A stretch of DNA of 64,000 bases from Actinomycetes bacterium (GCA_024641245.1 JAHEDK010000002.1:167136-231135); one strand, 5' to 3'; positions 2,719 through 54,249 are shown, counted from the stretch's first letter. Program-made: numbers and translations. The notes: generated by a model not told the origin, from the sequence alone.

Positions 2719-3357
2719 ATGGTCACGTCTTCCGAGCCCTTCGCTGCTCGCCTGGACATCGACTACCCCGAAACGCTCGACAGGTTCACGACGTTCTTCC
2801 GGCTGATCTGGATCATCCCGATCGGTATCATCCTTTCCCTGCTCACCGCAACCGGCAACGAAACCGTGGCCGAGACCGGCGAACACATCGAACGGACGGG
2901 CCTCGGTATCACCGGAGGGCTCGCTCTCGCAACGATGCTGATGATCGTGTTTCGGATGCGGTACCCACGCTGGTGGTTTGACTTCGCTCGCGAGCTGACC
3001 CGCTTCGGAGCGCGGGTCGCTGCCTATTTCTTCTTGCTCACCGATCAGTACCCCTCGACCGTTGACGAGCAAGCGGTGCACCTCGAGATCGATTACCCCG
3101 ACGCGGAGCGAGACCTCAATCGCTGGCTGCCACTGGTGAAGTGGCTGCTGGCCATCCCCCACTACATCGTGCTCGCCGTACTGGCAGCCATCGGGATGGT
3201 CGTCTGGGTCATTGCCTGGTTCGCCATCCTCTTCACGGGACGCTATCCCCGCCCGCTCTTCGACTATCTGGTGGGCGTCGGCCGATGGGGACTGCGAGTG
3301 GAGGCGTACGCGTTCCTGCTGGTTACCGACGAATATCCGCCGTTCAGCCTCAAATAG
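2719..3357 (+). CDS. DUF4389 domain membrane protein
   Basis: GAGGAGG lies upstream of the ATG. The repeated pattern RLIWIIP...YPRWWFDF...FLLTDQYP / LLAIPHYIVL...GRYPRPLFDY...FLLVTDEYPPF is typical of DUF4389. Confidence 0.7.
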   Translation: MVTSSEPFAARLDIDYPETLDRFTTFFRLIWIIPIGIILSLLTATGNETVAETGEHIERTGLGITGGLALATMLMIVFRMRYPRWWFDFARELTRFGARVAAYFFLLTDQYPSTVDEQAVHLEIDYPDAERDLNRWLPLVKWLLAIPHYIVLAVLAAIGMVVWVIAWFAILFTGRYPRPLFDYLVGVGRWGLRVEAYAFLLVTDEYPPFSLK

Positions 3358-4285
3358 GCCGTATCTCGCCCCTGTCGCGCCCGAGGAAGGCCTCAATGGC
3401 TCTGATCATGTGACCGGCATGCGTGAGGGGAGCTTCATGGCGAGCTCCGACCAGTTCCACCACCTCTGGATCGCGCAGCAGCGAGGCCAGTTCGTACTGG
3501 ATTTCGGGAAACATCAATTGATCCTCGGTGTTGATTATCACCAGGGCGGGTTGTTCCAGTTTGCCGATCCATGGGCGTGCATCGAAGCGGTTGACGGCTG
3601 CGCCTGCCAGCCAGTAGAGGTCGGGGTCCCGGTTCTGAAACTGCCAGTAGGCCCAGCGCAAGTGCCTGGGAAGCACCGCCCCGACGTTCGCAAGGTAGGC
3701 GGTTCTCGCCCGGGTGCCTTCGGACCTGCTGAGGCGATCGAAGGCCCTGGCCAGCACGATGACTCCCCCTCCCACGAATCGCTCGGCCGCCGAACGAGCA
3801 GGCCCGGCAGACGTGCCGGCCAGGATCAGCTTGTCGACTCGCTGTGGATGCCGGTGGGCCAGTTCGAGGGCGGCCAGTCCGCCCATCGAGTACCCGGCAA
3901 CGGAGGCCTGGTCGATTCCCAGCGCGGTCATGATGCCGGCCAGATCGTCGGCGAGGTCGGCGATCTCATAACGGGCTCGCAACAGATCCGACTTCCCGGT
4001 GTTCCGGCCGTCCGGCACGATCACCCGGTAGTTCTTGGCGAGCCTGCCGATCAACTTCCACCACACGACGAGACCATGATCCCCCCAGCCGTGGACGAGC
4101 ACCAGCGGCGGAGCTACCGGGTTGCCGGCCTCCCGAACGAAGAACTCATTGTCGCCGACGAACACAGACCGCCCGGGCAGGCGGAGCGGGTGTTCTTGCG
4201 CTTCGGCCGGTTTGAGTTGTGGCTCGGGGCCCAGAAGTCTCCAACCGGCCCACAACAAGATGAGCCGCTTCATCCAGCGCATCAT
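3350..4285 (-). CDS. alpha/beta hydrolase
   Basis: HGWGDH oxyanion region and nucleophile elbow GYSMGG. It is translationally coupled to the upstream ferredoxin-like gene (overlap 4282-4285). Confidence 0.85.
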
Positions 4286-4731
4286 CGTGGCCCGCCCAGC
4301 GCGTCGCGGGCAAACACGTACTCATCCACAGGCCGGCCTTCAATCAGGTGCTCCTGGATGATCCGTTCCATGACCTCGGTCGTGACCGACCGGTACCAGA
4401 CGCCATCCGGATAGACGACGGCGATGGGTCCTTGCTCACAGATGCGGAAGCAGTCGGCCTTGGTCCTCAGCGCCACGGCCCCCCCGTCGATTCTTCCGAC
4501 CGGGGGCGGTTCGCCCATCGACCCCCGCCACGGGGGAGGCGCACTCGCCAACTCCAGGTCCTTCATGCGCCGCTTCACGTACTCCCATACCCTCGATGAC
4601 TCCTCATACGTCGAGCAGCGCGGCGTCGTCTGTTCTGCGCACAGGAACAAGTGGCGGCGCAAACCGCCGATGGATAGTGCCGAGGCGATCTTCTGCAGCC
4701 GTTCGTCGAGATGAAGCGGTCGGTCACTCAT
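4282..4731 (-). CDS. thioredoxin-like [2Fe-2S] ferredoxin family protein
   Basis: Pattern HLFLCAEQ...PRC...[20 protein letters not shown] matches thioredoxin-like 2Fe-2S ferredoxin domains. Confidence 0.6.
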
Positions 4732-4859
4732 GAGCCGTTCACGATACCGGGTTGACGGCGGGGCCTCGCCGGGTCTTGATGAAAAGCCGAGCGACTGACG
4801 GAGACGGTCGCGATCCGACCCGGCCGACTGCGCGGCCGATCGGTCTGATCGCAGCCCCT

Positions 4860-5906
4860 TCAGCTCAGGAGGCGGATGCCCGCTCCGGCCACGATTGACC
4901 CGATCACGGCCGCCGCTTCGGTCCGTTCGGCCTCGAGGGCAGCGAGAAGGAAGTCCAGACGATCGGGGTGGACCGAGATCAGCAGACCTCCCGACGTCTG
5001 TGCGTCGGCGAGTACATCTCTGAGTGGTGACCCGACGTCGCCGAAATCCACGTGATCGATCACGGCGGACATATTCCGTATGGACCCACCCGGCAGGATG
5101 CCCTGGGTGGCGAGGTCGAGCACCCCTTCGATCAGTGGAACCGAGGCGGCGTGGACCTCGGCGCCCACTTCCGCCGCCGATACCATCTCATGCAGATGGC
5201 CGAGCAGTCCGAAGCCGGTGACGTCCGTAGCCGCGTTGACCCCGACCGACGTCATGGCTCGGGCGGCCCCTTCATTGAGGGCGGCCATCACTTCGATGGC
5301 CCGCCTCTCCACCCCGGGATCCACACGGCCGTTCTTGATCGCTGTGGCGATGATGCCGGTACCCAGCGGTTTGGTCAGGACGAGTACATCGCCGGGTTGG
5401 GAGCCGGAGTTGGTGACGAGGCGGTCGGGCTCCACGATCCCGGTGATGGCAAAGCCGTACTTCGGTTCCGGATCGTCGATCGAGTGACCACCGACGAGCG
5501 TGCACCCCGCCAGTTCGAGCACAGCCGCGCCGCCGGCGATCACCTCTTCGAGCAAGTCGAAAGGCAGCGTGTCACGGGGCCATCCGACCAGCTGCAGGGC
5601 GGTGAGCGGAGTCCCTCCCATCGCGTACACGTCGGATAGGGCGTTGGCAGCCGCAATACGGCCCCAATCGTAAGGATCATCGACAACCGGGGTGAAGAAG
5701 TCGACCGTCTGGACGAGAGCCGTACCGCCGGGCTCGACGAACACGGCCGCATCGTCACTGGTCTCGAAGCCGACCAGGAGGTCCGGATGACGGGTGACCG
5801 GTGAGTTGCGCAAACGGCGCAGGACCTGCGCCAGCTCGTCAGAACCGAGCTTGCACGCTCAGCCGCTTCCGTGTGAGTACTGGGTCAGACGCGGTTTCAA
5901 GTCCAT
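4860..5906 (-). CDS. selD: selenide, water dikinase (selenophosphate synthetase), selenocysteine-containing form; in-frame TGA at 5861-5859
   Basis: The track ORF 4860..5813 has a SelD/AIR-synthase-like body ([12 protein letters not shown]..., GGHSIDD). The same frame continues upstream through one TGA to ATG 5906, which is preceded by AGGAGG. The N-terminus reads [21 protein letters not shown]. This matches the SelD catalytic loop, with TGA at the Cys/Sec position. Confidence 0.85.
5816..5832 (-). promoter_or_regulatory. SECIS-like hairpin downstream of the selD TGA
   Basis: The mRNA forms GGCGCAG-GUC-CUGCGCC starting 24 nt after the UGA. Its apex resembles the E. coli fdhF SECIS apex GCAGGUCUGC. 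Confidence 0.5.
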
Positions 5907-6034
5907 CTTGGGCACCTCCTTCCTGGTCGCGAGCTGCTGGTCGCTCGTCAAGATGCCAGTTTGGCACGGCCCGGGAATACGGATGCCGTTTGCCTCTGGT
6001 CCCACTCGCTCGGTCTTGAGAAGCTGATCAGGTC

Positions 6035-10602: not shown

Positions 10603-12186
10603 CTAGCCCGTACGGCCCGGGAATTCCACAATGTCGGCGGTTCGGCTCATCAATCGATCGACCTCGATCATGGCTCGCACGACATTGGCATCGAACCGGC
10701 TGCCGGCGTGGGCACGCAACTCGGCAAATGCCTGCTCCGGCACCATCCGCGGCCGGTGTGGGCGGTCGGAGGTCATCGCGTCGTACGCGTCCGCCACCAA
10801 AACGATTCTGGCGAACAGCGGAATGTCCGCTTCCTTCAACCGGCGTGGATACCCCTCGCCGTCAAGTTGTTCGTGATGACATAACACGGCATTGGCAACG
10901 TCTTCGTGCACAGCTTCGGCTATCAAATCGAACCCGCTGGCCGCATGCGCGCGGATAGCCGCCCAATCCTCATCATTGAGTGATTCGGTCTTGAGTAACA
11001 CCGAATCGGGAACGGCTAGCATCCCGACATCGTGAAGTAGCCCCGTCAATCTGAGCCGTTCGAGCTCGAAAACCTTCAGTTCCAGAACCGTTCCAATCTG
11101 TGTCGACAGCTCCGCAACCCGCACCGAGTGATCGGCCAGCCACGGCGCCCGCATGCGCAAGGCGGCGAGCAACGTTCCAACAACGGGCGTCATCGAGGTG
11201 AGCGACCGGCCCGAGCCGGCAAACGCCGGGGCGCCACCACTCAGCTTCGTGCAATTCTTGCCCGCCCGCTTGGCCGAGTACAGCGCCCGGTCGGCGGCTT
11301 CGACGATGTCCTTGGCCGACTGTGCATCATGTGGGAAGACCGAAACACCGAGGCTGACCGTCACCTGCCCGACACCAGACATGGGCTGGTCGGCAACTGC
11401 CAGACGGATACGCTCTGCCGCCTGGATCGCCCCTTCGGCATCCGTTTCCGGCATGATGATCCCGAATTCTTCACCTCCAACACGGCAGGCGATGTCGACC
11501 TCCCGGATCTGCCTCCGAAACGCTTCACCCATTCCCCGCAGCACAGCATCGCCGGTGCTGTGACCGTAGTTGTCGTTGACCGCCTTGAAATCATCGATGT
11601 CTGCCATGACTACGGCCAGCGGACGGTCGTAGCGACGGGCGCGCTCGAGTTCCTCACTCAGTCGATCAAAGAAGTATCCATGATTCTTGAGGCCGGTTAG
11701 CCAATCGGTGACTGAGAGCGCCTGCAACTGCGTTACCGATTGTTCGAGTTCCTCGTTCCGCTCCCGCTCACGCTCATAGAGCCGGCTGATCTCCTCGAGC
11801 ACCGGTCTACTGGCCTCGGCCGAGAGAAGGCCGGAACCACTGGAAACAGCCCGGATCGCGCCGATCAGATCTGCAGGCTTGCCTTTCACGACATAGGCGG
11901 CAGTGCCGGTGGATACCATTTCGCCGAGATGGGCTACATCACCGAACGAGGCGATCGCGACAATCTCGAGGCGTTGAGCTGAGAGGTCGCGCAACCGCCT
12001 GGCTGCCGTAACAGCCCCCATACCGGGGAGCGCGACGTCGATGACGGCCACCGTCGGGGACATGACGCGAGCGCGCTGGATGGCTTCCTCACCGGTGGAG
12101 GCTTCCCCAACGACTTCGAAACCGGCTCCTGCCAGCACACTTGCCGTGGCGGCACGAGCAGTTGCATCGTCGTCGACGAGCATCAC
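10603..12186 (-). CDS. response regulator receiver - GGDEF - HD-GYP domain protein (c-di-GMP turnover)
   Basis: REC domain (LVDDD...VAVIDVALPGM), GGDEF domain (RVGGEEFGIIM), and HD-GYP domain (HDVGMLAVP...HHEQLDGEGYPRRL). Confidence 0.9.
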   Translation of the reverse strand: MMLVDDDATARAATASVLAGAGFEVVGEASTGEEAIQRARVMSPTVAVIDVALPGMGAVTAARRLRDLSAQRLEIVAIASFGDVAHLGEMVSTGTAAYVVKGKPADLIGAIRAVSSGSGLLSAEASRPVLEEISRLYERERERNEELEQSVTQLQALSVTDWLTGLKNHGYFFDRLSEELERARRYDRPLAVVMADIDDFKAVNDNYGHSTGDAVLRGMGEAFRRQIREVDIACRVGGEEFGIIMPETDAEGAIQAAERIRLAVADQPMSGVGQVTVSLGVSVFPHDAQSAKDIVEAADRALYSAKRAGKNCTKLSGGAPAFAGSGRSLTSMTPVVGTLLAALRMRAPWLADHSVRVAELSTQIGTVLELKVFELERLRLTGLLHDVGMLAVPDSVLLKTESLNDEDWAAIRAHAASGFDLIAEAVHEDVANAVLCHHEQLDGEGYPRRLKEADIPLFARIVLVADAYDAMTSDRPHRPRMVPEQAFAELRAHAGSRFDANVVRAMIEVDRLMSRTADIVEFPGRTG

Positions 12187-34584: not shown

Positions 34585-35270
34585 TCCAGAAGCTCAGTGC
34601 TTGGTTCGAAGAGCGGATGGGATGGAAGCCGATCTGGACGGCACTGGCGCTCCGCAACATCCCCAAGGTCAACTGGCTGTACACGCTGGGCAGCGCCACG
34701 CTCCTCGTCACAGTGAACCAGATTCTGACCGGCATCCTCCTCACCATCTACTACGTCCCCAGCCCTCAGGATGCCTACAACAGCGTTGCCTTCATAACGA
34801 ACGAGATCACTGCCGGCTGGCTCATCAGAGGGCTGCATCATTGGGGTGCCAGTGCGATGGTCGTCCTGGCCGGACTCCACATGCTGCGGGTGGTCTTCCA
34901 CGGCGCCTATAAGTTCCCCCGCGAAATCACCTGGTTCACCGGACTCGGCCTCCTGGCCGTGACGATGGCCTTCGGATTCACCGGGTACTTGCTGCCGTGG
35001 GATCAGAAGGCTTACTGGGCTACCACGGTGGGTACCCGAATGCTGGAGGTGACACCCGTCATCGGTGATTGGCTGCTCCGGATCGCCCGCGGTGGGGAAG
35101 AGCTGTCGGCCGTGACGCTCACCCGGTTCTACGGAACCCATGTATGGGTGCTCCCGTCGGTGCTCCTGCTACTCCTGGGTATCCACCTCTTTCTGGTCGT
35201 CCGCGTCGGCATCAGCGCACCTCCGACACCCAAGGAGACAGACGAGAAGCCCAAAGTGTGGTTCGAATAA
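34581..35270 (+). CDS. qcrB: cytochrome b6-type subunit, complex 1 (four-helix, split cytochrome b)
   Basis: The haem ligand pairs are LHHWGASAMVVLAGLH (i/i+14) and THVWVLPSVLLLLLGIH (i/i+15), as in b6/Bacillus QcrB. Overlaps the Rieske gene by 4 bp. Confidence 0.9.
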   Translation: MIQKLSAWFEERMGWKPIWTALALRNIPKVNWLYTLGSATLLVTVNQILTGILLTIYYVPSPQDAYNSVAFITNEITAGWLIRGLHHWGASAMVVLAGLHMLRVVFHGAYKFPREITWFTGLGLLAVTMAFGFTGYLLPWDQKAYWATTVGTRMLEVTPVIGDWLLRIARGGEELSAVTLTRFYGTHVWVLPSVLLLLLGIHLFLVVRVGISAPPTPKETDEKPKVWFE

Positions 35271-37669
35271 TGAAACGCGAAGAACGCTCCAAATACCTCG
35301 AGGAGTACGCAGAGGACAAGAAGAAGGGCATCCCGTTCTTCCCGGACGCCGTGTTCAAGGACGTCCTGGTTGCATTGATCGTGTTGATCATTCTCATCGG
35401 CCTCGCCTACTTCGCAGGCGCCCCGCTCGAAGAACGTGCGAATCCATCCGACAGCGACTACACACCTCGACCGGAGTGGTACTTCCTCTGGCTCTTCCAA
35501 CTGCTCAAGTACTTTCCGGGCAACCTCGAGTTCGTCGGCGTCATCCTCCTGCCTGCCCTCGGATTCGCCATCCTCTTCGCCATGCCGTACCTGGACAGGA
35601 CCAAGCTCCGTCACTTCCGCAACCGCAGTTGGGTGATGGCATCAACCGGCGTCGCCGTGGTAGCCATGGGGTTTCTCACAGTCCAATCCATCAGGGAGAC
35701 CCCGGCGCCGGCCGACGTGAGCGGCACCATCAACGCCGCCGTTCTCTTCACCGAGAATTGCTCCGTATGCCACGGCACATCGATCGATGTCCCGACCGGG
35801 ATAAACCTGCATGAGACGATTGCCGGGGGTCACGAGGGGATGCCGGCCTTCGCAGCCACTCTGTCGACCGATGAAATCGATGCCCTCGCAGGATTCCTGG
35901 TCTCTCCGCAGGGAGGGGCGATATTCACCGCCAACTGCGCGGCATGCCACGATTCGAGTGACCTCGCCGCCGCCACCCCGTTCCAGCTCCAGGACGCCCT
36001 GAATCAAGGCACCGCCTACGCGCCGCATGATGGACTCGACATACCCGACTGGTCCGAGGTCCTCTTCGGCCAGGATCGAACCGCGCTCCTCAACTTCTTG
36101 CTTGCTCCGGACGGCCAGCGCCTCTACACGCTCTACTGCTCCGAATGTCACGGAACCTCGATCAGCTGGGAAGGGGAACGAGACGAACTCGAAGCGCTCA
36201 TCCGCCAGGGCGGCAACCACCTCGAGATGACCCAGTGGAGGGACGTGCTGCCGGAGGACCAGATCACCGAACTCGCTCTGTTCGTCGTCGAACCATCCAC
36301 GGCTCCCGGGGGCGAGCAACTGTTTGCACAGCACTGCTCGAGTTGTCACGGCGTGCGGGTGCCGAGCGCTCCCGACATAGAAACCGCCTACAACATCATC
36401 GCCGACGGTGCAGAGCACCGATCGATGCCTGTCTGGGGCGACGTTCTCACCGAGGAGCAGCTAACCGCACTCACAACCTACACGCTCGAAGCCAGTCGCG
36501 GCACACCGGTCATCGTCGGCCAGCAACTGTTCGGTCAATTGTGCTCGTCGTGCCACGGTGACTTCGGTGAAGGCGGCCCGAACCCCGCCGACCCCATCAG
36601 AATCATCCCTCCGATCAGTACGGCGAGCTATTTGGAGACCCGGGACGACGCCACGTTGCGCGCCATCATCTCAAAGGGTCAGTCGGACCAGGGCATGTCG
36701 CCTTTCCTGGAGAGCGAAGGTGGACCGCTGACCGAGGACGAGGTGAATGCCGTGGTTGCGTTCCTCCGTTCGTGGGAATCGGATCCGCCGGTCGATTTGC
36801 CGCCCGATCTTGCCCGTGGACCCGTCGCGGGTGGAAGCGTGCAGGTGTATGCGGCGTTCTGCGCCCAATGCCACGGAGCAGATGGGGCAGGCGGCCCCGA
36901 TTTGGTCGGTCCTTCCTTGACCTCGGCAGAATTCCAGGATTCCTTCACCGATGAGCAACTGCACGAGGCCATCGACCTCGGCCATGCTGCTACTTCGATG
37001 ATCGCCTGGGGCGAGGTCCTCACCGCCGATCAGATCCAGGGACTCGTCGACCACATCCGCTCGCTGGGCGGACGCGGTACCCTGCAGACGATCGTCTACG
37101 AACGCGACATTGCTCCGATCTTCCAGGCGTCTTGCGCCGGTTGCCACGGGTCGTCGGGGGGTTGGGATGCATCCACCATGGAGTCCGTGATCGGCAGCGG
37201 AAGCAGCGGGCCGGCCGTCGTCGCCGGCGATCCCGACGGGAGTCATCTCGTGCAGCGCCTTCGTGGCGAGGGCAACTTGATGCCCCCGGCCGGAGCGCTG
37301 CCGGACAACCAACTCGATCTGATCGTGCAATGGATTGCCGGGGGAGCAACCGCCGAAGTGACAACAGGCGACGCGCAATCCGGCGGCGGCGACATCGGTG
37401 ATTACACGTGGACGAAGGATGTCCAGCCGATCCTGCAGGCCAGTTGCGCGGCCTGCCACGGATCGTCCGGGGGTTGGTACGCGGGGACGTACAGCTCCAC
37501 GATCAACAGCGGCGACAGCGGTCCGGCCGTCGTCCCTGGGAATGCCGACGACAGTTCGATGATCCAACGACTGCTCGGCAACGGCAACCTGATGCCGCCG
37601 GGAGCTCCGCTTTCGGAAGAACAGATCGCCGTCCTGATCTACTGGGTCAACAGCGGCGCCAAGGAATAG
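35270..37669 (+). CDS. qcrC: subunit IV (cytochrome b C-terminal, PEWY) fused to eight cytochrome c domains (six class-I-like plus two PSCyt1-like)
   Basis: ATG 35270 overlaps the cytochrome b TAA stop. The N-terminus has three TM helices with RPEWYFLWLFQLLKYF. Eight CXXCH motifs follow: CSVCH, CAACH, CSECH, CSSCH, CSSCH, CAQCH, CAGCH, CAACH. The last two domains have the 'planctomycete cytochrome c' pattern (CxxCHG...GPAVV.G.....S.L.QRL......MPP...L....I..WI..GA). Confidence 0.85.
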   Translation: MKREERSKYLEEYAEDKKKGIPFFPDAVFKDVLVALIVLIILIGLAYFAGAPLEERANPSDSDYTPRPEWYFLWLFQLLKYFPGNLEFVGVILLPALGFAILFAMPYLDRTKLRHFRNRSWVMASTGVAVVAMGFLTVQSIRETPAPADVSGTINAAVLFTENCSVCHGTSIDVPTGINLHETIAGGHEGMPAFAATLSTDEIDALAGFLVSPQGGAIFTANCAACHDSSDLAAATPFQLQDALNQGTAYAPHDGLDIPDWSEVLFGQDRTALLNFLLAPDGQRLYTLYCSECHGTSISWEGERDELEALIRQGGNHLEMTQWRDVLPEDQITELALFVVEPSTAPGGEQLFAQHCSSCHGVRVPSAPDIETAYNIIADGAEHRSMPVWGDVLTEEQLTALTTYTLEASRGTPVIVGQQLFGQLCSSCHGDFGEGGPNPADPIRIIPPISTASYLETRDDATLRAIISKGQSDQGMSPFLESEGGPLTEDEVNAVVAFLRSWESDPPVDLPPDLARGPVAGGSVQVYAAFCAQCHGADGAGGPDLVGPSLTSAEFQDSFTDEQLHEAIDLGHAATSMIAWGEVLTADQIQGLVDHIRSLGGRGTLQTIVYERDIAPIFQASCAGCHGSSGGWDASTMESVIGSGSSGPAVVAGDPDGSHLVQRLRGEGNLMPPAGALPDNQLDLIVQWIAGGATAEVTTGDAQSGGGDIGDYTWTKDVQPILQASCAACHGSSGGWYAGTYSSTINSGDSGPAVVPGNADDSSMIQRLLGNGNLMPPGAPLSEEQIAVLIYWVNSGAKE

Positions 37670-37811: not shown

Positions 37812-39608
37812 ATGGAGAAACTTCACTTCTTCGACGAGAACATCCCCTGTCTCGCCGCCTGTCCGGTCAACACGAATGCCGGCATGTACGTTGCCGCCAT
37901 CGCAGACGGACAGGATGAACTGGCCTATCTAACCGCTCGCCTCCCCAACCCGTTCGCCTCCGTCTGCGGTCGGGTTTGTGCGGCGCCATGCGAGGACGCC
38001 TGTCGGCGCGGCGAAATCGACAAGCCCATCGCCATCCGGGCGCTCAAGCGATTCGTCACCGATCAATTCGGCGTCGAATCCGGCATGGATACCTACCGGC
38101 AGGTCGCCGCCCCTGCTCTCGAGTCGCGATCACAAAGCGTCGGGATTGTCGGAGGGGGCCCGGCCGGCCTGGCCGCCGCCCACGACCTCCGCCGCCTCGG
38201 CTACGGCGTCACGCTGTACGAAGCCACCGGTCAGCTCGGCGGCATGATGCTGCTGGGGATCCCCGAGTACCGCCTTGATCGATCCCTCCTGGCGGCGGAG
38301 ATCAAGGCCATCACCGACCTGGGCGTCGAGGTTCGGTTGAACACGAAACTCGGCGATGGCATCACGCTCGATGACCTCCGCCGGCAGCACGATGCCCTAT
38401 TCGTGGCCATCGGGGCGACCCTCGGACGCGGACTCGACCTCGAAGGCCACGACGCAGACGGGGTGTTGAAGGCGATCGAGTACCTGATCAACGCCAACCA
38501 GGGGTTCGCAACCGACGTCGGTCAGAAGGTGGTCGTAATCGGTGGCGGCGACGTGGCGATGGATGCAGCAAGGACCGCGCTACGAGCTGCAACCTACGAT
38601 GAGATCGCCCGCCGCCATGCCGAATACGACGAAGAGGACGGGCGCTCATCCATGACGGAAGCCCTCGACGTGGCTCGCACGGCTGCCCGGACTGGTGCTC
38701 AGGACATAACCATCATGTCACTCGAGGCCAAACACGAGATGCCGGCGTCGGAGTTCGAGGTCGAAGAGGCCGAGCACGAGGACATCAAGTTTGTCAACCG
38801 GCGCGGTCCCGCCCGGATACTCACCGCCGATGGCAAGGTCACCGGCATCGAGACGATCGGGGTCACGCGCGTTTTCGACGAGAACGGCCGGTTCTCCCCT
38901 GAATTCGACGATGCAGATCGGCTGACGCTGGAGGCAGACACCATCATCATGGCTATCGGCCAGGCGATCGATGTTGAGGCACTGGGAGCGAACGGCCCTG
39001 AGTTGAGTCCTCGCAAGACAATCCAAGTGGGTGAGGACAGCCTGGCGACTTCGCTTCCGATGGTATGGGCCGGCGGCGATGCAGCCAGGGGCCCGCGCAC
39101 TCTCATCGATGCGATCGCAGACGGCCGGATTGCGGCCCGTGAGATCCACGAGGCGTTTGGCGGCAGCTTCGCCGAGCAGGATACCGGAACCATGGTGCAA
39201 CTGGACCAGTTCCACCGTCTCGACGACATCTACGACCGGGTCCCCCGGGTCGCCGTGCCCACGCTGCCGACGGACCGGCGCATCGGTCTGGCAGAAGTCG
39301 AAACAGGGTTCACCGTCGAAGAGGCCAGGTGTGAGGCACAGAGGTGTCTGCGCTGCTTCGCCAACATCCTGCTCGATACCGACATTTGTGTTTTATGCGC
39401 GCTGTGCGCCGACGTCTGCCCGCTCGACCTGATTTCGCTGGTTCCCTCGGAGGACATTCACCCAGACGAGCCGGGTGGCACGGCGTTAATGTTGAACGAG
39501 CAAAGCTGCATCCGTTGCGCGCTGTGTATTGAGCGATGCCCGACAGATGCACTGTCGATGGGACTGTGGACCGGAGTGGGAGTGCCGAAATTGGGAGCAC
39601 CGGTATGA
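37812..39608 (+). CDS. GltD-like FAD/NAD(P)-binding Fe-S oxidoreductase with C-terminal 2x[4Fe-4S] ferredoxin domain
   Basis: N-terminal GltD-type cluster region (CLAACPVNTN...FASVCGRVCAAPCEDACRR). Dinucleotide folds VGIVGGGPAGLAAA and VVVIGGGDVAMDAA. C-terminal CLRC...CVLCALCADVCP...CIRCALCIERCP. Confidence 0.85.
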   Translation: MEKLHFFDENIPCLAACPVNTNAGMYVAAIADGQDELAYLTARLPNPFASVCGRVCAAPCEDACRRGEIDKPIAIRALKRFVTDQFGVESGMDTYRQVAAPALESRSQSVGIVGGGPAGLAAAHDLRRLGYGVTLYEATGQLGGMMLLGIPEYRLDRSLLAAEIKAITDLGVEVRLNTKLGDGITLDDLRRQHDALFVAIGATLGRGLDLEGHDADGVLKAIEYLINANQGFATDVGQKVVVIGGGDVAMDAARTALRAATYDEIARRHAEYDEEDGRSSMTEALDVARTAARTGAQDITIMSLEAKHEMPASEFEVEEAEHEDIKFVNRRGPARILTADGKVTGIETIGVTRVFDENGRFSPEFDDADRLTLEADTIIMAIGQAIDVEALGANGPELSPRKTIQVGEDSLATSLPMVWAGGDAARGPRTLIDAIADGRIAAREIHEAFGGSFAEQDTGTMVQLDQFHRLDDIYDRVPRVAVPTLPTDRRIGLAEVETGFTVEEARCEAQRCLRCFANILLDTDICVLCALCADVCPLDLISLVPSEDIHPDEPGGTALMLNEQSCIRCALCIERCPTDALSMGLWTGVGVPKLGAPV

Positions 39609-44804: not shown

Positions 44805-46844
44805 ATGAACGCGACCCTCGGGTATCTCTCGATCCTGGCCGCAGTGGTGGGAGCGCTCGGTATCACCGTGCGGGGTTTCATCGCGATGCGTGATCCGGAG
44901 CGGGCGAACAAAGGGTATCTGGGGTTGCCCGTCATACTGTTCGTGTCCGGAGCCGTCGGCGCAATGTTCTTCCTGGAACTCGGGCTTCTCACCGACGACT
45001 TCTCGATCAAGTACATCGCCAACAACTCCTCGACCACCACCCCGTTTCTCTTCAAGGTCGCCTCTGGATGGGCATCGCTGGAGGGATCGATCGTTTTGTG
45101 GGGTCTGGTCCTGGCCGGCTTCACATTCGCCGTATACGCACGGTTCTTCAGAAGCGAAAGCGGCGACCGGCTCGCAGCAGGGGCTCTGGCGATCATGGGG
45201 CTCATCTCTCTTTACTTCTTCGGGCTAATGGCCACAATCTCCGACCCATTCGCTCGCTGCGTGCAAACGTTCAGCGACGGTGTCGGTTGTGTGACCGGCG
45301 AGAACGCGATCCTCGCCAACGTGATCTCCTCCCCGATCGAAGGGCGCGGCGCCAACGCACTGCTCCAGAACCATTGGCTCATGGCCCTGCATCCACCAAC
45401 GCTCTACGTCGGCTATGTCGGGCTCAGCGTCCCCTTTGCGTTTGCCATCTCGGCGCTCCTCCTCAAAACCACCGGGGCGGCCTGGCTGACCCGGACCCGC
45501 AACTGGACGGTGTTCGCCTGGATGTTCCTCACTGCCGGCATTGTTCTCGGTGGGCTCTGGTCGTATGAGGTGCTCGGCTGGGGCGGCTACTGGGCATGGG
45601 ACCCGGTTGAGAACGCCTCCTTCATGCCGTGGCTGGTCGCGACTGCCTTCTTGCACTCGTCTGTCGTGCAGGCGAGGCGCGGGATGCTGCAGTCGTGGAA
45701 CTTCGTCCTCGTCATCACGACCTTCGCGCTCACGATTCTCGGCACCTTCTTGACCCGCTCCGGCGTAATCGTTTCGGTTCACAGCTTCTCGCAGTCCGCC
45801 ATCGGGCCTGCCCTGTTGATCTTCCTGGTGGTCGTGCTGCTGGGATCGCTCGGGCTCTTCGCGTCAAGGGCTCACACCATCGCCTCTTCTCCCCGGCTCG
45901 ATTCACTCAGCAGCCGGGAAGGGGTGTTCTTGTTCAACAACCTTCTGCTCACCGTGTTCGCGTTCATGGTGCTGACAGGGACGCTCTACCCGCTCTTCGT
46001 TGAGGCGTTCTCCGACTCGACGGTGGGCGTCGGTCGTCCGTTCTTCGATCGCATGGCGATCCCGTTGTCCTTCCTGTTGCTGCTGGCGATGGGCATCGGA
46101 CCGGTCTCGCCCTACCGGGCGGCGAGCGCCCGCGTCGTGTGGGAGCGGATTCGCTGGCCCGTCCGGGTTGCCCTCGGCGCCGCCGCGCTGGCCGTCGTGT
46201 TCGGCTATCGGAACTCGTTCCTGCTGCTCGGTGTTCTGGCCGCCGTGTTCGTCATGGGCGTGATCATCCGCAACCTCTACGACGCCGCCCGGACCAGGGC
46301 AGACAAACTCGGTATCGGACGGAGACAGGCCGCCGCCCGGATCATGCGCGGCGACCCGCACTATTGGGGTGGCCAGATCTCCCACCTGGGCGTTGCGATA
46401 CTGGCACTGGGCATCGCCTTCTCAGCCAACCTGTCGGAGACCGCCACGGTGACCATCGACGCCGGAGATACGGTCAACTTCGCCGGCTTCGAGGTGACCT
46501 ACGAACAGGAGTTCAGCCGCCAGGAACCGGGCCGGTTCGTCACCGGAGCAGACATCACGGTGACCCGGGACGGGTCGGTCGTCGGTACGTACCAGCCACG
46601 GCTGAATCAGTACGGCAACACGCGGGAATCGATCGCCACCCCAGAGGTCGACACCATGTTCTCAGGCGACCTGTACCTCTCGCTCCGCAGCATCGATCCT
46701 TCATCCGTGACCCTCGAGGTCTATTGGTTCCCGTTCATCTGGCTCATCTGGGTTGGAGGCTTCCTGGCGGCCGCCGCCGGGGTCTGGGGATTCGCGGTCA
46801 AGAAGCCCGAACGTTCGGTTGCACGGGACGACACGCGTGTCTGA
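44805..46844 (+). CDS. ccmF: cytochrome c haem lyase subunit CcmF
   Basis: Large polytopic protein with the WWD motif WGGYWAWDPVENAS. GGAGGAAGG RBS. Confidence 0.9.
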   Translation: MNATLGYLSILAAVVGALGITVRGFIAMRDPERANKGYLGLPVILFVSGAVGAMFFLELGLLTDDFSIKYIANNSSTTTPFLFKVASGWASLEGSIVLWGLVLAGFTFAVYARFFRSESGDRLAAGALAIMGLISLYFFGLMATISDPFARCVQTFSDGVGCVTGENAILANVISSPIEGRGANALLQNHWLMALHPPTLYVGYVGLSVPFAFAISALLLKTTGAAWLTRTRNWTVFAWMFLTAGIVLGGLWSYEVLGWGGYWAWDPVENASFMPWLVATAFLHSSVVQARRGMLQSWNFVLVITTFALTILGTFLTRSGVIVSVHSFSQSAIGPALLIFLVVVLLGSLGLFASRAHTIASSPRLDSLSSREGVFLFNNLLLTVFAFMVLTGTLYPLFVEAFSDSTVGVGRPFFDRMAIPLSFLLLLAMGIGPVSPYRAASARVVWERIRWPVRVALGAAALAVVFGYRNSFLLLGVLAAVFVMGVIIRNLYDAARTRADKLGIGRRQAAARIMRGDPHYWGGQISHLGVAILALGIAFSANLSETATVTIDAGDTVNFAGFEVTYEQEFSRQEPGRFVTGADITVTRDGSVVGTYQPRLNQYGNTRESIATPEVDTMFSGDLYLSLRSIDPSSVTLEVYWFPFIWLIWVGGFLAAAAGVWGFAVKKPERSVARDDTRV

Positions 46845-49484: not shown

Positions 49485-49625
49485 TCGGGCCCGTTTCCGC
49501 AGGTTAGCTTGTAGCAATTCCCAATCTTGTGCGCCCTTTCACATGGGTCGAATGACCCTACGCGATCTGCGCGCGGATCCGTCATCATGTCGGTACACGA
49601 GTCGAGTAGCTCCCGGGGAGGAAGC

Positions 49626-51698
49626 ATGAGTCGATTTCGACACACACGCTTGGTTGTGCTTGTCGCCCTGCTGATGGTCTTAGCGGCCTGCACGAGCAGC
49701 GCCGACGACACCACCACTACGGGAGCGGAAGGGTCAACGCCCACGACAGCTCCACCGGTCGTCGAGCCGGCGGAATCCGAGCTCGTGGTTCCGTTCCTAG
49801 CGGCCTGGGTCGGTTCTGGACACAACGACGCGACTGCTGAAGCCTTCGTGCACTGGAATGAGGACGACCCCCAGGTCATTCCGACCAGTTGCGCGAAGTG
49901 CCACAGCACCCCCGGTCACCTCGATTTCCTCGGAGCCGACGGCAGCCCGTTCGGCAGCGTTGAAGCCGACGCCCCCATCGGGACCACGATCCAATGCGAA
50001 GCGTGCCACAACGATGTCACGATCTCCCTGGACAGCGTCGTGATGCCATCGGGTCTCGAACTCACCGGCCTCGGCGACGAATCCCGTTGCATGAACTGCC
50101 ACCAGGGCAGGGAGTCCAAGATCAGCGTGGACGCATCGATTACCGAAGCGGGCGTCGAAGAGGACACCGTCTCCGAGGATCTGGGTTTCCGGAACATCCA
50201 CTACTTCGCGGCTGCCGCCACCAAATACGGTACCGAAGCCAAGGGTGGCTATGAGTACGAGGGCAAGACGTACGATGCGTTCTTCGTCCACGTCGAGGGA
50301 TACTCGACCTGTATTCAGTGCCATGATCCGCACACGCTGGAACTGAAGATCGCCGAATGCTCGACATGCCACACCGGTGTCGCCACGGTTGAGGATCTCC
50401 GAGATGTCCGTATGCCGGGATCACTCGTCGACTTCGACGGAGACGGGAATCTCGAAGAGGGCATCTACTACGAACTCGAGGGCGTGCGGGGACTCTTGCT
50501 CCAGGCCATTCAGGCGTATGCCTCCGAGGTGGCGGGAACCGGCATCACCTACGATGCCAACGCCTACCCGTACTTCTTCGATGAGGCCGGCAAGGGCTTT
50601 GGCGCGTGGACCCCGCGTCTGCTCAAAGCGGCGTACAACTATCAGGTGTCCCTCAAGGACCCGGGAGCATTCGCGCACGGTGGCAAGTACATCCTCGAGT
50701 TGATGTACGACTCGATCGAGAACCTCAACGAAGCCATCTCGTCGCCCATCGACATGACGGCGATGCACCGAATCGACCACGGGCACTTCGCCGGGTCCGA
50801 GGAAGCCTTCCGGCACTGGGACGAGGATGGCGCCGTGCCGGCTTCGTGCTCACGGTGCCACTCGGCTGGAGGCGTGCCGCTGTATCTGCAGGAAGGCGTG
50901 ACGATAACCCAGCCAACTTCCAACGGGTTCAACTGCTCGACGTGCCACAACAGCACGAGCGAGTGGACCCGGTATGAGGTCCTCGATGTGACCTTCCCGA
51001 GCGGTGCGACTATCGACAGCGGCGACCAGAACGCCAACCTTTGCATGACCTGTCACCAGGGCCGTGAATCCGGCGCAAGCGTCGACCGGCGGATCGGAGA
51101 CACCGGGGCGGATACCGTCAGCGACACACTTGGCTTCATCAACGTGCACTACCTGCCGGCGGGCGCCACGCTCTTCGGCAGCGAGGCAGCGGGTGGCTAC
51201 CAGTACGCCGGGCAGACCTATGCCGGAGCCAACGATCACCCCATCGCCACGTGCACGGGTTGCCACAGCGCCCACACACTACAGGTTGAGGTTGAGGCCT
51301 GCGGGGGTTGCCATCAGGGGACGAACTCTGAAGAAGACCTGCAGGACATCCGCATCACCGCCGGCGACTTCGATGGTGACGGCGACGAGGCCGAGGGCAT
51401 CGCCGGAGAGGTCGAGACCATGCGCGAAGCCCTGCTGGCGGCGATGCAGGCGTATGCGGACGCCACGGACGGCGTGAGCCCGATCGTGTACGACGCCCAC
51501 GCCTATCCGTACTTCTTCAACGACGCCGGTGAGAGCTATTCGACCTGGACGCCGCGTCTGCTGAGGGCCGCCTACAACTACCAGTACGCAACGAAGGACC
51601 CTGGTGCGTTCGCCCACAACCCGGCCTACGTGCTCGAGTTGTTGTATGACTCGCTGGCGGACATCGGCGCCGACGTGACGGGGCTGATCAGGCCGTAG
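49626..51698 (+). CDS. decahaem cytochrome c lipoprotein, internally duplicated (2 x 5 haems)
   Basis: Lipobox LLMVLAAC after ATG 49626 (RBS GGGGAGGAAG). Ten CXXCH motifs. The two halves align (e.g. YPYFFDEAGKGFGAWTPRLLKAAYNYQVSLKDPGAFAH versus YPYFFNDAGESYSTWTPRLLRAAYNYQYATKDPGAFAH). Confidence 0.85.
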   Translation: MSRFRHTRLVVLVALLMVLAACTSSADDTTTTGAEGSTPTTAPPVVEPAESELVVPFLAAWVGSGHNDATAEAFVHWNEDDPQVIPTSCAKCHSTPGHLDFLGADGSPFGSVEADAPIGTTIQCEACHNDVTISLDSVVMPSGLELTGLGDESRCMNCHQGRESKISVDASITEAGVEEDTVSEDLGFRNIHYFAAAATKYGTEAKGGYEYEGKTYDAFFVHVEGYSTCIQCHDPHTLELKIAECSTCHTGVATVEDLRDVRMPGSLVDFDGDGNLEEGIYYELEGVRGLLLQAIQAYASEVAGTGITYDANAYPYFFDEAGKGFGAWTPRLLKAAYNYQVSLKDPGAFAHGGKYILELMYDSIENLNEAISSPIDMTAMHRIDHGHFAGSEEAFRHWDEDGAVPASCSRCHSAGGVPLYLQEGVTITQPTSNGFNCSTCHNSTSEWTRYEVLDVTFPSGATIDSGDQNANLCMTCHQGRESGASVDRRIGDTGADTVSDTLGFINVHYLPAGATLFGSEAAGGYQYAGQTYAGANDHPIATCTGCHSAHTLQVEVEACGGCHQGTNSEEDLQDIRITAGDFDGDGDEAEGIAGEVETMREALLAAMQAYADATDGVSPIVYDAHAYPYFFNDAGESYSTWTPRLLRAAYNYQYATKDPGAFAHNPAYVLELLYDSLADIGADVTGLIRP

Positions 51699-51796: not shown

Positions 51797-52708
51797 TCAA
51801 GCAGCCTGGTGGATCGCGGCCAGGACTTCCGCAACAACGGAATCCGGCCGGCCAATCAGGTCCCACCAGGTGTATCGAAGCGTTCTCCAGCCGAGTAGCT
51901 CTGTCTGGTTCTGGATCACGCGGTCTCTGCGAAACGTGGGGCGATCCATGTGAAACGCTTCGGAGTCGAGTTCGATCCGCAGGCGGTGCTCGATGAAGGC
52001 GAAGTCGGCCCGGCATACGAACGTCCCGTCAGGGTTTCTGATCTCCACCTGTGGCGTCGGTTGCGGCGTACGGAGCCCCCACGACCGGCGAAACAGATCT
52101 TCCAGTTCGCTCTCGGTGACGCCATCCCAGTGGAGCCGCTGCTCGACGAACGGCCGTATGACCCCGACTCCCCTGCGGCCGCGCCTGGCGACCCGGCCGA
52201 CCAGCGCGGCAACACCTTCGAGCGTAAAGCTCCGAGTTCTCAGACCTCTATCGAGAGCCGACTCGACCAGCCACGGCGCGCTGGCGCCCAGATCGACGAC
52301 CGTTCGGACCGGAGTGGTCACCGGGATACCCGAGACCTCCGCCGAGTCCTCGGGAGCGAGATCGGTCGACTCGTGAACGACGAACTCCTGATGCGCCCGA
52401 TTCCAGCGGGGCATCACTACCTCGATGCGCGGAGGCTTGCGATCAACCAGGCCGTGCAGGAATGCAGCGGTCTGGTGGGAGGCCAGCGCCAGATCGCCTG
52501 CGGTCGTGGTCGCGATGAGCACGGCCTGATGCCAGTCGCGCGGCACGGCGGGGAAAACGTACGTGCGGTAGGCCACCCGCTCGAGCACTCCGCGGGACGT
52601 CAAACCTTTCAACTGATCTGAGCTGAGCCCTGCCTCAATGACAGCAGCACGATCGACTACGCCGTGTCGCAAGGCGGCCCTCTGAGTGAGAATCTGCAAC
52701 GGTGTCAT
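51797..52708 (-). CDS. AbiEi_4-like N-terminal domain plus DUF559 (Vsr-like endonuclease fold) protein
   Basis: N-terminal HTH-like segment (RHGVVDRAAVIEAGLSSDQLKGLTSRGVLERV). The C-terminal segment ADFAFIEHRLRIELDSEAFH...LGWRTLRYTWWDL is typical of DUF559. The start is ATG 52708 or 52720. The longer track extension runs over the palindromic repeats. Confidence 0.75.
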   Translation of the reverse strand: MTPLQILTQRAALRHGVVDRAAVIEAGLSSDQLKGLTSRGVLERVAYRTYVFPAVPRDWHQAVLIATTTAGDLALASHQTAAFLHGLVDRKPPRIEVVMPRWNRAHQEFVVHESTDLAPEDSAEVSGIPVTTPVRTVVDLGASAPWLVESALDRGLRTRSFTLEGVAALVGRVARRGRRGVGVIRPFVEQRLHWDGVTESELEDLFRRSWGLRTPQPTPQVEIRNPDGTFVCRADFAFIEHRLRIELDSEAFHMDRPTFRRDRVIQNQTELLGWRTLRYTWWDLIGRPDSVVAEVLAAIHQAA

Positions 52709-52755
52709 GCCCAACACCATCAAGGTTGGGTGTGACAAATCCCGAACCCAGTGAA

Positions 52756-52800
52756 CTTGCGTCAGAAACGGGCGCCGGCCGCCCCAAACTGACGCAAGAA
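52756..52800. repeat. REP-like palindromic element, copy C1 (CTTGCGTCAG-N23-CTGACGCAAG)
   Basis: 10-bp perfect arms. The spacer contains GGGCG-ccggc-CGCCC. Confidence 0.8.
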
Positions 52801-52824
52801 AGGGATAGGGGCGCCACCTTCTCG

Positions 52825-52871
52825 TTCTTGCGTCAGTGTTCCGAGCAACGGGCCCAGAAGTGACGCAAGAA
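52825..52871. repeat. REP-like palindromic element, copy C2 (TTCTTGCGTCA-N25-TGACGCAAGAA)
   Basis: 11-bp perfect arms. The left flank CTTCTCGTTCTTGCGTCAG is identical to copy A. Confidence 0.85.
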
Positions 52872-52939
52872 TGAGGAGAGACAGAGAAGTGGGGAGCCTT
52901 TCGGCTCCCCACTTCGGGTGTTCGTTAAGCGACTCTTGT

Positions 52940-53935
52940 CTACGGCAGGCGGCCTGCTCCGTGGCAACTCACGCAGAGGGCATCCGGGATGTTCTTCAGC
53001 AAGTACGCCTTGGTAGACGTATGCGGATAGTCGAAGGATGTCCCATCATCGGGATTGCCGTGGCAGCGCGTGCAGCGCGGATGGTTGTTGTGCGTTTCCG
53101 AGTCCACTCTTGGCTCGTGGCACGATCCGCACCACGCATCCGACCCATCCCGTCCGTCCCACACCAGTGGTGCGTTGGCGAACTGGAAGTTCGGGTTGCG
53201 CGACAACAGCTTGTACCCGTAGGCGTACGAAGTGAAGGCATCACCGTCGGAGTCCTCGAGCGTCGCGTAAGCACAGGCAGCGTTGAATCCGTCTCCAAGC
53301 ACCACCGCGCCATCAGCGGCTGCGCACCAATGCCAGACACCTTCGGCCCCGTCGAAATCGAGGGCCAAAGGAGCACCCCTGCTACCAGCGGCAACAGTTG
53401 TGCCCTCATCGGCAGGGTATACCCACTTGTTGATCAATTGGCCGAAGTCACCGTGTGGCGTGTGGCAGGTGCCGCACGACAACGAGCCTTCGACGGCCGA
53501 GTTCGTAGTACGGCCGTCATACCCGAAAATGAACGCACCATCAGGGCTCACCGAAGCCCCCGGCGTGTGTCCGTTCCCCAGGTTGGAGCTGTACACAGCC
53601 CGATCCGAGGCGGTACCCGACGGCGCTGCCGCCGACCAACCAGGTCGCGGACCTGTGGGATCGGCGCCCATATAGCTATGGCAGGTCGCACAGACGGCCT
53701 CGATGCTGGACAACGCCATCAACGCGTAGGCGCCGGCGGCGTCGTGCACGTCGTGACACTGCAGGCAGAAGTCCGTCGAGGCGCTGTAGCCACCGTGGGG
53801 CGACACGTTGCCGTCATAGGGATCTCCTAGTGCTGGTGGCTCCGTCGGCGTCTGCGCGACGGCAGCCGTCATCGGCACCAACAACGCAGCCACCATGCAG
53901 ACAACGAGACCGACGGTTCGTATTCGTCGTCTCAA
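52940..53935 (-). CDS. secreted hexahaem cytochrome c
   Basis: Six CXXCH motifs: CLQCH, CATCH, CGTCH, CGSCH, CTRCH, CVSCH. I prefer TTG 53935, which follows GGAGGAGGG and gives the signal peptide (M)RRRIRTVGLVVCMVAALLVPMTAAVAQ. Confidence 0.8.
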   Translation of the reverse strand: MRRRIRTVGLVVCMVAALLVPMTAAVAQTPTEPPALGDPYDGNVSPHGGYSASTDFCLQCHDVHDAAGAYALMALSSIEAVCATCHSYMGADPTGPRPGWSAAAPSGTASDRAVYSSNLGNGHTPGASVSPDGAFIFGYDGRTTNSAVEGSLSCGTCHTPHGDFGQLINKWVYPADEGTTVAAGSRGAPLALDFDGAEGVWHWCAAADGAVVLGDGFNAACAYATLEDSDGDAFTSYAYGYKLLSRNPNFQFANAPLVWDGRDGSDAWCGSCHEPRVDSETHNNHPRCTRCHGNPDDGTSFDYPHTSTKAYLLKNIPDALCVSCHGAGRLP

Positions 53936-54249
53936 TTCACCCTCCTCCCGATCGGGCGCTAGCCCGACGTCATGGGAGCCGACCGCTCCCTCCAGTCCCT
54001 TTCCAAACCGTTCCCCGTGCCGCCCTGCGACTCGGGGTGCCCAATCAACGATCAGGATAATCAGACCTTTTAGGTCAAAATATGCCGATAGCACTTGGCG
54101 TATTCATCACTCTATGTGTTTGTCGACACGGCGTCAAGTTGGAGAAGGGCCCCATAACGACAGGGCCGTTCGGCCCTATCAACGAGGCACACCGCACTAC
54201 CGAAATCGGCCGGAACAGGTATTATTTATCTCAGGGTGGCGGAGGATAA

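Follow-up and report, generated by a model that had tools for sequence, protein, structure and literature searches.

The locus considered here raises a question of decoding: does a TGA codon lying in frame near the 5' end of a selD gene end translation, or is it read as selenocysteine (Sec)? The gene is on the minus strand of a 64,000-nt stretch of DNA from an Actinomycetes bacterium (GCA_024641245.1, JAHEDK010000002.1:167136-231135), below called the window, and all coordinates are counted from its first letter. Sec-containing SelD proteins as such are textbook biology. As far as the sequence can tell, the gene is predicted to code for a Sec-type selenophosphate synthetase (selenide, water dikinase) with the corresponding activity, and we assign a probability of about 0.93 to the reading that selD is Sec-decoded with the help of a functional Sec insertion sequence (SECIS) situated in frame, inside the coding sequence (CDS).

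The original prediction gave exact positions on the minus strand for a Shine-Dalgarno sequence, an ATG start codon and the in-frame TGA, and all three were found where it had put them (Table 1). Its conceptual product of 348 amino acids (aa), with the TGA read through, was reproduced as well, and the open reading frame (ORF) track does begin selD at 5813, as it had reported, where the codon is TTG. We observed that the translation signals upstream of the TGA have counterparts in close relatives. A ribosome-binding sequence, AGGAGG or AGGGGG, is found at the same place in the relatives L085, L086 and L089, while the start codon at the corresponding position is ATG in L085 and L086 and TTG in L089.

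Membership of the 348-aa product in the SelD family is clear from the profile matches: TIGR00476 scored 405.7 bits (cutoff 125) over model positions 1-309 of 311, and NF002098 scored 379.7 bits (cutoff 299). Close relatives of the window protein carry PF00586 and PF02769 (the PurM-like AIRS and AIRS_C domains). In the alignment to the E. coli SelD structure 3u0o, which has cysteine (Cys) at the catalytic position (Cys-type), residues 6-345 were aligned end to end (E = 6e-85), and the A. aeolicus chain showed moderate similarity (E = 1e-63). Besides the SHGxGxxCK loop, Asp-containing motifs, including TDVTGFGL, are common to the window protein and E. coli SelD.

The TGA had been predicted to occupy the catalytic Cys/Sec column, and the alignment bears this out, with the codon falling opposite Cys17 of 3u0o. 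The comparison loop SHGAGCGCK had been quoted correctly for E. coli; the window loop SHGSG-U-ACK lies over it column for column, so that Cys17, Cys19 and Lys20 all have their counterparts (Lys19 of the window protein corresponds to Lys20). We take Cys17 and Lys20 to be essential for the activity of the E. coli enzyme. In the A. aeolicus SelD chain 2yye, too, a Cys (SSGCAAKVG) is aligned to the TGA; according to the general literature, the wild-type enzyme of Aquifex has Sec there. The loop is present in the product only if translation passes through the TGA, since a start at 5813 removes it as a whole. In E. coli, Cys17 is coded by TGC where the window has UGA, and the E. coli selD gene has no requirement for a SECIS.

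For the analysis of conservation we used 80 SelD loci from bacterial genomes, with one genome per species. The codon in the catalytic column was TGA in 55 of these loci, which span many phyla; the remaining 25 had TGT or TGC there. Among the TGA-bearing loci are five syntenic ones from Acidimicrobiia (L001-L004 and L006); the best matches to the window protein in this one-per-species set came from metagenome-assembled genomes (MAGs) of Acidimicrobiia, at 62-63% identity. Closer relatives, with identities of 79-98%, were found by a protein database search, and DNA was taken for four of them as well as for a Logan contig carrying an identical product. In all five, the TGA and the frame upstream of it are retained, and the start codon, which is ATG or TTG, is preceded by a purine-rich site for ribosome binding. 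The TGA itself is present in six independent assemblies of close relatives (L081 and L085-L089).

A comparison of the ten codons immediately 5' of the TGA was informative about selection. Between L086 and the window there were four synonymous and no non-synonymous changes, and the same held for L089. In close relatives generally, nearly all differences in these codons are synonymous. The stretch 5' of the TGA is therefore translated in this frame and under purifying selection. TGA is also the commonest ordinary stop codon of the window, where it ends 31 of the 48 probable genes, selD itself included. The standard genetic code is therefore in use overall, the recoding of UGA is local, and a genome-wide reassignment of TGA is rejected.

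One of the relatives showed a break close to the region in question. From a point 26 nt 5' of the TGA (5888 onward), the Logan contig SRR12825369_226823 (L081, positions 1-426) agrees with the window at 99.3%. Before that point it is unrelated to the window and has a different N-terminus (VAVKLTEFSHGSG*). Either a rearrangement at the strain level or an assembly chimera, with its breakpoint inside the 5' end of selD, accounts for this.

Downstream of the TGA, two adjacent hairpins can be formed by the mRNA. The second one (hairpin 2), for which we see the role of the SECIS core, had been predicted at 5832-5816, 24 nt after the TGA; the location was correct, while the spacing is in fact 26 nt (5858-5833 lie between). 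The hairpin is a 17-nt perfect palindrome, GGCGCAGGTCCTGCGCC, which occurs exactly once in the window; with up to three mismatches allowed, 0.89 occurrences would be expected by chance. A pattern search of the window for a second copy of the SECIS-like hairpin found none. The folding energy was -11.3 kcal/mol for the exact 17-mer and from -12.8 to -13.0 kcal/mol when flanking bases were included.

The comparative evidence was drawn from a gap-free RNA alignment of the 60 nt from the TGA onward in 56 genes with TGA in the catalytic column (Sec-type). Hairpin 2, which occupies columns 30-46, was paired in 91.6% of the cells of this alignment. Both sides had changed in five of its seven pairs; for example, at columns 33/43 a G-C pair is replaced by C-G, A-U or U-A. 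This amount of covariation was reached by none of 500 shuffles, and when the 3' arm was slid by one to three columns, the pairing of the two hairpins together fell from 82.6% to 29-42%. The loop bases G37 and U38 were invariant in the 56 genes.

We also found the hairpin to be specific for the Sec-type genes. With no correction for phylogeny, all seven stem pairs were present in 41 of 56 Sec-type genes compared to only 1 of 25 Cys-type genes (p = 2.5e-9), and GU occurred at columns 37-38 in 56/56 compared to 14/25 (p = 3.7e-7, likewise uncorrected). The mean local folding energy was -10.5 kcal/mol for Sec-type and -3.65 kcal/mol for Cys-type genes. The stem lies in the CDS and is made of the codons for A-Q-V-L-R, a motif found in 31 of the 55 listed Sec-type proteins and in none of the 25 Cys-type ones. 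In a syntenic Cys-type orthologue (L013), which has a TGT codon at the catalytic position, four of the seven hairpin pairs are left; this looks like a conversion of Sec to Cys followed by decay of the SECIS.

The published model of the bacterial SECIS (bSECIS) sets limits with which hairpin 2 can be compared (PMC13188914, Fig. 2). In the model, the apical loop has 3-9 nt and the upper stem 4-16 bp; a G stands within the first two bases of the loop, as a rule with G or U after it; UGA and loop are 16-37 nt apart; and the minimum free energy is at most -7.5 kcal/mol (PMC13188914). In hairpin 2, the loop GUC has 3 nt (5 nt if G36-C40 opens), the stem has 7 bp, and the loop opens with G37-U38. The loop is 33 nt away from the UGA (alignment columns 4-36), which is near the upper limit. 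With an energy of -11.3 kcal/mol or lower, the hairpin is within all four constraints of the model.

Table 1. Features of the selD locus in the window, with the observation on which each row rests
Feature	Coordinates	Strand	Basis or remark
Shine-Dalgarno sequence AGGAGG	5915..5920	-	read directly; 8-nt spacer to the start codon
Probable true selD start codon, ATG	5904..5906	-	relatives start at the matching position; TIGR00476 aligns from residue 6
Predicted full-length selD CDS	4860..5906	-	348 codons including Sec16, plus stop TGA at 4862-4860
Catalytic-loop codons S-H-G-S-G-U-A-C-K, residues 11-19	5850..5876	-	residue-by-residue alignment to E. coli SHGAGCGCK
In-frame TGA, predicted to be read as selenocysteine, residue 16	5859..5861	-	column conserved among SelD loci
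Hairpin 1, AGCUCG-GUUCUGA-CGAGCU, putative accessory or spacer stem between UGA and SECIS	5833..5851	-	folds at -8.4 kcal/mol
Hairpin 2, putative bacterial SECIS core, GGCGCAG-GUC-CUGCGCC	5816..5832	-	folding and covariation; loop G and U are 5825-5824
TTG used as start by gene callers, probably false	5811..5813	-	yields the shortened 317-aa product, MRNSPVT...

Hairpin 2 was absent from five Sec-type SelD genes (L024, L028, L033, L037 and L080), which belong to Gaiellales, Thermoleophilia and other Actinomycetota MAGs. A stable hairpin was present instead at nt 14-38 after the TGA, about 12 nt nearer to the UGA. Four of these replacement hairpins are of the kind CCCAAG-GAC-UUGGG, and their energies range from -11 to -14 kcal/mol. 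The position of the SECIS appears to have shifted within the SelD gene family.

Hairpin 1 had a different pattern of conservation. In the 56 Sec-type genes it was paired in 74.8% of cells, with both sides changed in five of eight pairs. Its enrichment in Sec-type genes was weak, with 5.98 pairs on average compared to 5.08 in Cys-type genes (p = 0.0075 without phylogenetic correction). As a candidate for the SECIS itself it was rejected: its loop is not conserved, it is 13 nt from the UGA where the rule is 16-37 nt, and the Sec-type enrichment is weak. Folding of the single sequence had additionally proposed an outer stem enclosing both hairpins and a stem containing the UGA. The outer stem (columns 6-10/50-54) was paired at 55.4% compared to 54.3% in shuffles and showed no covariation, so it is not a feature of the family.

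The likeness of the hairpin to the SECIS of E. coli fdhF, to which the original prediction drew attention, holds at the level of sequence, with GCAGGTC...TGC common to both. The sequence GCAGGTCTGC occurs in fdhF, in a stretch beginning at a TGA, in 5,419 of 5,426 E. coli genomes; we take this TGA to be the Sec codon and the stretch to be the fdhF SECIS. The earlier quoted GCAGGUCUGC is present in fdhF too, and the 17-nt upper hairpins of both genes share GCAGGUC...UGC. Presumably, the apical loop of fdhF exposes G and U just as the window hairpin does. A difference in layout is that the spacer is filled by a separate hairpin in the window.

Closer parallels are found among bacterial Sec-SelD genes (A. 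aeolicus 2yye/2zod; genes in PMC1794560 and PMC4561486). The window gene belongs to the same family and has the same domain architecture, the UGA-encoded Sec falls in the same column of the N-terminal glycine-rich loop, and the SECIS is inside the CDS just 3' of the UGA. In the two-stem bSECIS described for SelD of Clostridiales, stem 2 is downstream of stem 1, has an apex of 3-4 nt and fits the model alone (PMC4561486, Supplement S6). The window layout matches this two-stem form. The published description was for Clostridiales; in our alignment of 56 genes the layout occurs in Acidimicrobiia as well as in many other phyla.

A Sec-type SelD works only in cells that have selA, selB and tRNA-Sec, and we looked for these genes around the locus. 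ARAGORN detected no tRNA of any kind in the window, the Pfam scans of 30 window ORFs gave no SelA or SelB domains, and tblastn of the window with SelA and SelB from the Acidimicrobiaceae MAG L014, which carries selA, selB and tRNA-Sec, gave no real match. A marginal tblastn match at 5824-5958 (E = 0.004) was discarded as most likely an artefact, since the query ORF from L014 (4290-5822) overlaps, at its N-terminus, L014's own selD on the opposite strand. The distance of tRNA-Sec from selD differed between the two types: 10 kb or less separated them in 16 of the 25 Cys-type loci, but in not one of the 55 Sec-type loci. Since no Sec-type locus has a nearby tRNA-Sec, its absence near selD is uninformative. 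We infer that selA, selB and selC are present elsewhere in the genome.

The Cys-type loci with a nearby tRNA-Sec (L014, L044, L051, L056, L059-L061, L064, L066, L067, L071-L074, L076 and L079) are mostly from Actinomycetes and often have selA and selB as well. The contrast in proximity between the Sec and Cys types is probably largely phylogenetic.

Apart from selD, neither a scan based on GC content at third codon positions nor a gene-by-gene check of in-frame extension through TGA gave a convincing TGA-interrupted gene in the window. The other candidates in the window turned out to be antisense frames or neighbouring genes sharing a frame by chance.

The proposed decoding would proceed as follows. 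Translation most likely begins at the ATG at 5906, and the ribosome would not terminate at the UGA at 5861-5859. SelB would bind the hairpin and deliver Sec, which would be inserted as residue 16 of the loop SHGSG-U-ACK, at the position of E. coli Cys17. Hairpin 1 (5851-5833) sits between the UGA and the SECIS core, and the latter, being inside the CDS, forces the peptide A-Q-V-L-R. The finished enzyme would make selenophosphate; since selenophosphate is needed for making Sec-tRNA(Sec), selD would depend on its own product.

Several observations weigh against a Sec-decoded selD. The 76-nt region, when folded alone, was modestly more stable than shuffles (z = -1.91); with a z-score of only this size, folding of a single sequence is weak evidence, and the strong evidence is comparative. 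The contrasts between Sec-type and Cys-type genes carry no phylogenetic correction, and many of the Cys-type loci form one Actinomycetes clade. No Rfam family matched the hairpin, and no match in the window reached a gathering score; the sole match in a sensitive local Rfam scan was a small RNA far below threshold (19 bits compared to the gathering score of 50, E = 0.69), which we treat as chance. The fdhF 17-mer starts 11 nt after the UGA compared to 26 nt here, with the loop GU 14 nt farther away in the window. The window stem is a perfect 7-bp helix with no bulged U, such a bulge being, as we assume from the literature, a feature of the fdhF element. Finally, tRNA-Sec, selA and selB were found neither in the 64-kb window nor in about 4 kb to its left.

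Three other explanations have to be weighed against these facts. If the TGA were a genuine stop, the locus would be a pseudogene, or SelD would be N-terminally truncated and made from the TTG at 5813 or a nearby start; every automatic gene call does give a 317-aa product, and this account would also agree with a window in which the Sec machinery is not seen. Such a product would be devoid of the whole SHGxG(C/U)xCK loop that aligns to the N-terminal loop of E. coli SelD. Moreover, the exclusively synonymous changes in the ten codons 5' of the TGA in L086 and L089, the recurrence of TGA at exactly this column in 55/80 loci of many phyla, and the conservation of a well-spaced Shine-Dalgarno sequence and start codon upstream are hard to reconcile with a stop, which we regard as most improbable. 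Chance would be the explanation if the hairpin and the TGA were unrelated, with the palindrome reflecting the conserved AQVLR or merely GC-rich sequence, or with the TGA being an assembly error. The stem is indeed made of codons for conserved residues, and stable hairpins are common at 63% GC, as the z-score above illustrates. Against this, the AQVLR motif is restricted to Sec-type genes (31/55 listed, compared to 0/25 of the Cys type), and the compensatory changes in the stem cross amino-acid changes (GCC...GGC giving AQVLG, GCU...AGU giving AQVLS). Also, at the Val codon of the loop Sec-type genes have GUN without exception, whereas Cys-type genes use AUN as well, and an assembly error would have to be repeated in six independent assemblies; a coincidence of this kind is scarcely credible.

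The remaining explanation accepts that the UGA is passed by the ribosome and differs in the residue: Cys or Trp would mainly be inserted by a near-cognate or suppressor tRNA, and the hairpin would be a general stimulator of read-through and not a binding site of SelB. There is a precedent in the homologous UGA of insect SPS1 genes, for which read-through of this kind, helped by local stem-loops, has been argued (PMC4561486), and none of selA, selB and tRNA-Sec turned up in the window. The hairpin, however, agrees with the bacterial SECIS model in its spacing and in its invariant G-U loop, and the same element is present in the SelD genes of Desulfosporosinus, Dehalobacter and Anaeromyxobacter loci, genera that do have selenoproteins (PMC1794560). 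A Cys codon would serve better if Cys were intended, and the Cys-type lineages have lost the hairpin. We consider read-through without Sec very unlikely, though slightly less so than a stop or a coincidence. Decoding of the UGA as Sec through hairpin 2 is thus the reading that we prefer.

A further, quite speculative extension of the Sec-decoding reading concerns the reach of Sec in this lineage. It is conceivable, if improbable, that in these Acidimicrobiia Sec-SelD is the sole or nearly the sole selenoprotein, so that the Sec trait would be kept solely for SelD in a self-sustaining loop, with a tandem two-hairpin SECIS whose SelB-binding loop, at 33 nt, comes close to the largest known spacing. 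More radically still, the genome might be without selA, selB and selC, and the UGA would then be decoded in some other way.

The gene order around selD gives an indication of the origin of the window. A GGDEF/HD regulator, MgtE, selD, a 149-aa ferredoxin-like ORF and an alpha/beta hydrolase follow each other in the window and in several Acidimicrobiia MAGs, and the window therefore comes from an Acidimicrobiia-like actinobacterium. The syntenic set consists of the Sec-type loci L001-L004 and L006, the Cys-type locus L013, and the metagenomic relatives L085-L089; the Sec-type ones have the same TGA and hairpin. In L085-L089, whose SelD is 81-98% identical to that of the window, a gene of about 390 aa for a major facilitator superfamily (MFS) transporter (about 10982-12169) stands between selD and the 149-aa ORF, where the window has a 128-nt gap (4732-4859). 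The transporter was lost in the window or gained in the relatives. A promoter scan around selD gave no promoter-like site, and the two terminator-like sites detected were outside selD and uninformative.

The 149-aa ORF (4282-4731, minus strand), located directly 3' of selD, is conserved in Acidimicrobiia relatives at 51-67% identity. It had no Pfam match and only weak matches, below cutoff, to NCBIfam 2Fe-2S ferredoxins (E = 1.8e-13). Its four Cys residues have a layout that looks like that of thioredoxin-like [2Fe-2S] proteins, and it overlaps by 4 nt with the alpha/beta hydrolase gene (3350-4285).

Farther from selD, multihaem c-type cytochromes are dense in the window (35069-37669, 44805-46844, 49527-51698, 52940-54094 and 54250-55752), and ccmF is present too. 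One protein of this group, 866 aa long, is a fusion in which the C-terminal domain of a cytochrome b is joined to seven cbb3-type c domains. For an Acidimicrobiia-like genome, this equipment for respiration or electron transfer is notable. Situated among the cytochrome genes is an AbiEi antitoxin-like gene (51797-52912, minus strand), the C-terminal domain of which is REase_MTES_1575-like. A 598-aa GltD-like NAD(P)-binding Fe-S flavoprotein (37812-39608, plus strand) showed similarity below cutoff to YgfK, a putative selenate reductase subunit, as well as to the NCBIfam entry 'diclust_near_Sec'. Its gene has no in-frame TGA, and a link to selenium is unsupported.

The expectation that gene callers shorten this gene was borne out in public data. 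The window protein and its 28 best-scoring database relatives, which are 76-98% identical to it, are all annotated with 298-320 aa, most of them with 316-317 aa, and the Logan gene call for the identical sequence has 317 aa. For example, the NCBI MAG record P0045 begins with MAQVLRRL, inside the SECIS-encoded motif, while the record P0042, flagged as partial, begins with ACKL directly after the Sec codon. Tools such as bSECISearch and deep-Sep have been motivated expressly by the trouble that a Sec-UGA causes in gene finding (PMC12013277).

The locus is new and had not been annotated as such, but it belongs to a well-known kind. Among bacterial selenoproteins, SelD and FdhA are reported to be the two most widespread, and Rubrobacter is one of the Actinobacteria for which Sec-SelD has been listed (PMC1794560, PMC5029168); bSECIS elements inside Sec-SelD genes have already been described (PMC4561486). 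No new question is opened by the present case, as the Sec/Cys dichotomy, the in-frame SECIS and the misannotation are all well documented (PMC1794560, PMC5029168, PMC4561486, PMC12013277), and its main value is the correction of the annotation. With public calls of about 317 aa that lack the catalytic loop, users of MAGs see a defective SelD and miss the decoding of UGA as Sec. The corrected gene marks an uncultured Acidimicrobiia-like lineage as a probable user of selenocysteine and adds one more example to the large Sec-SelD family.

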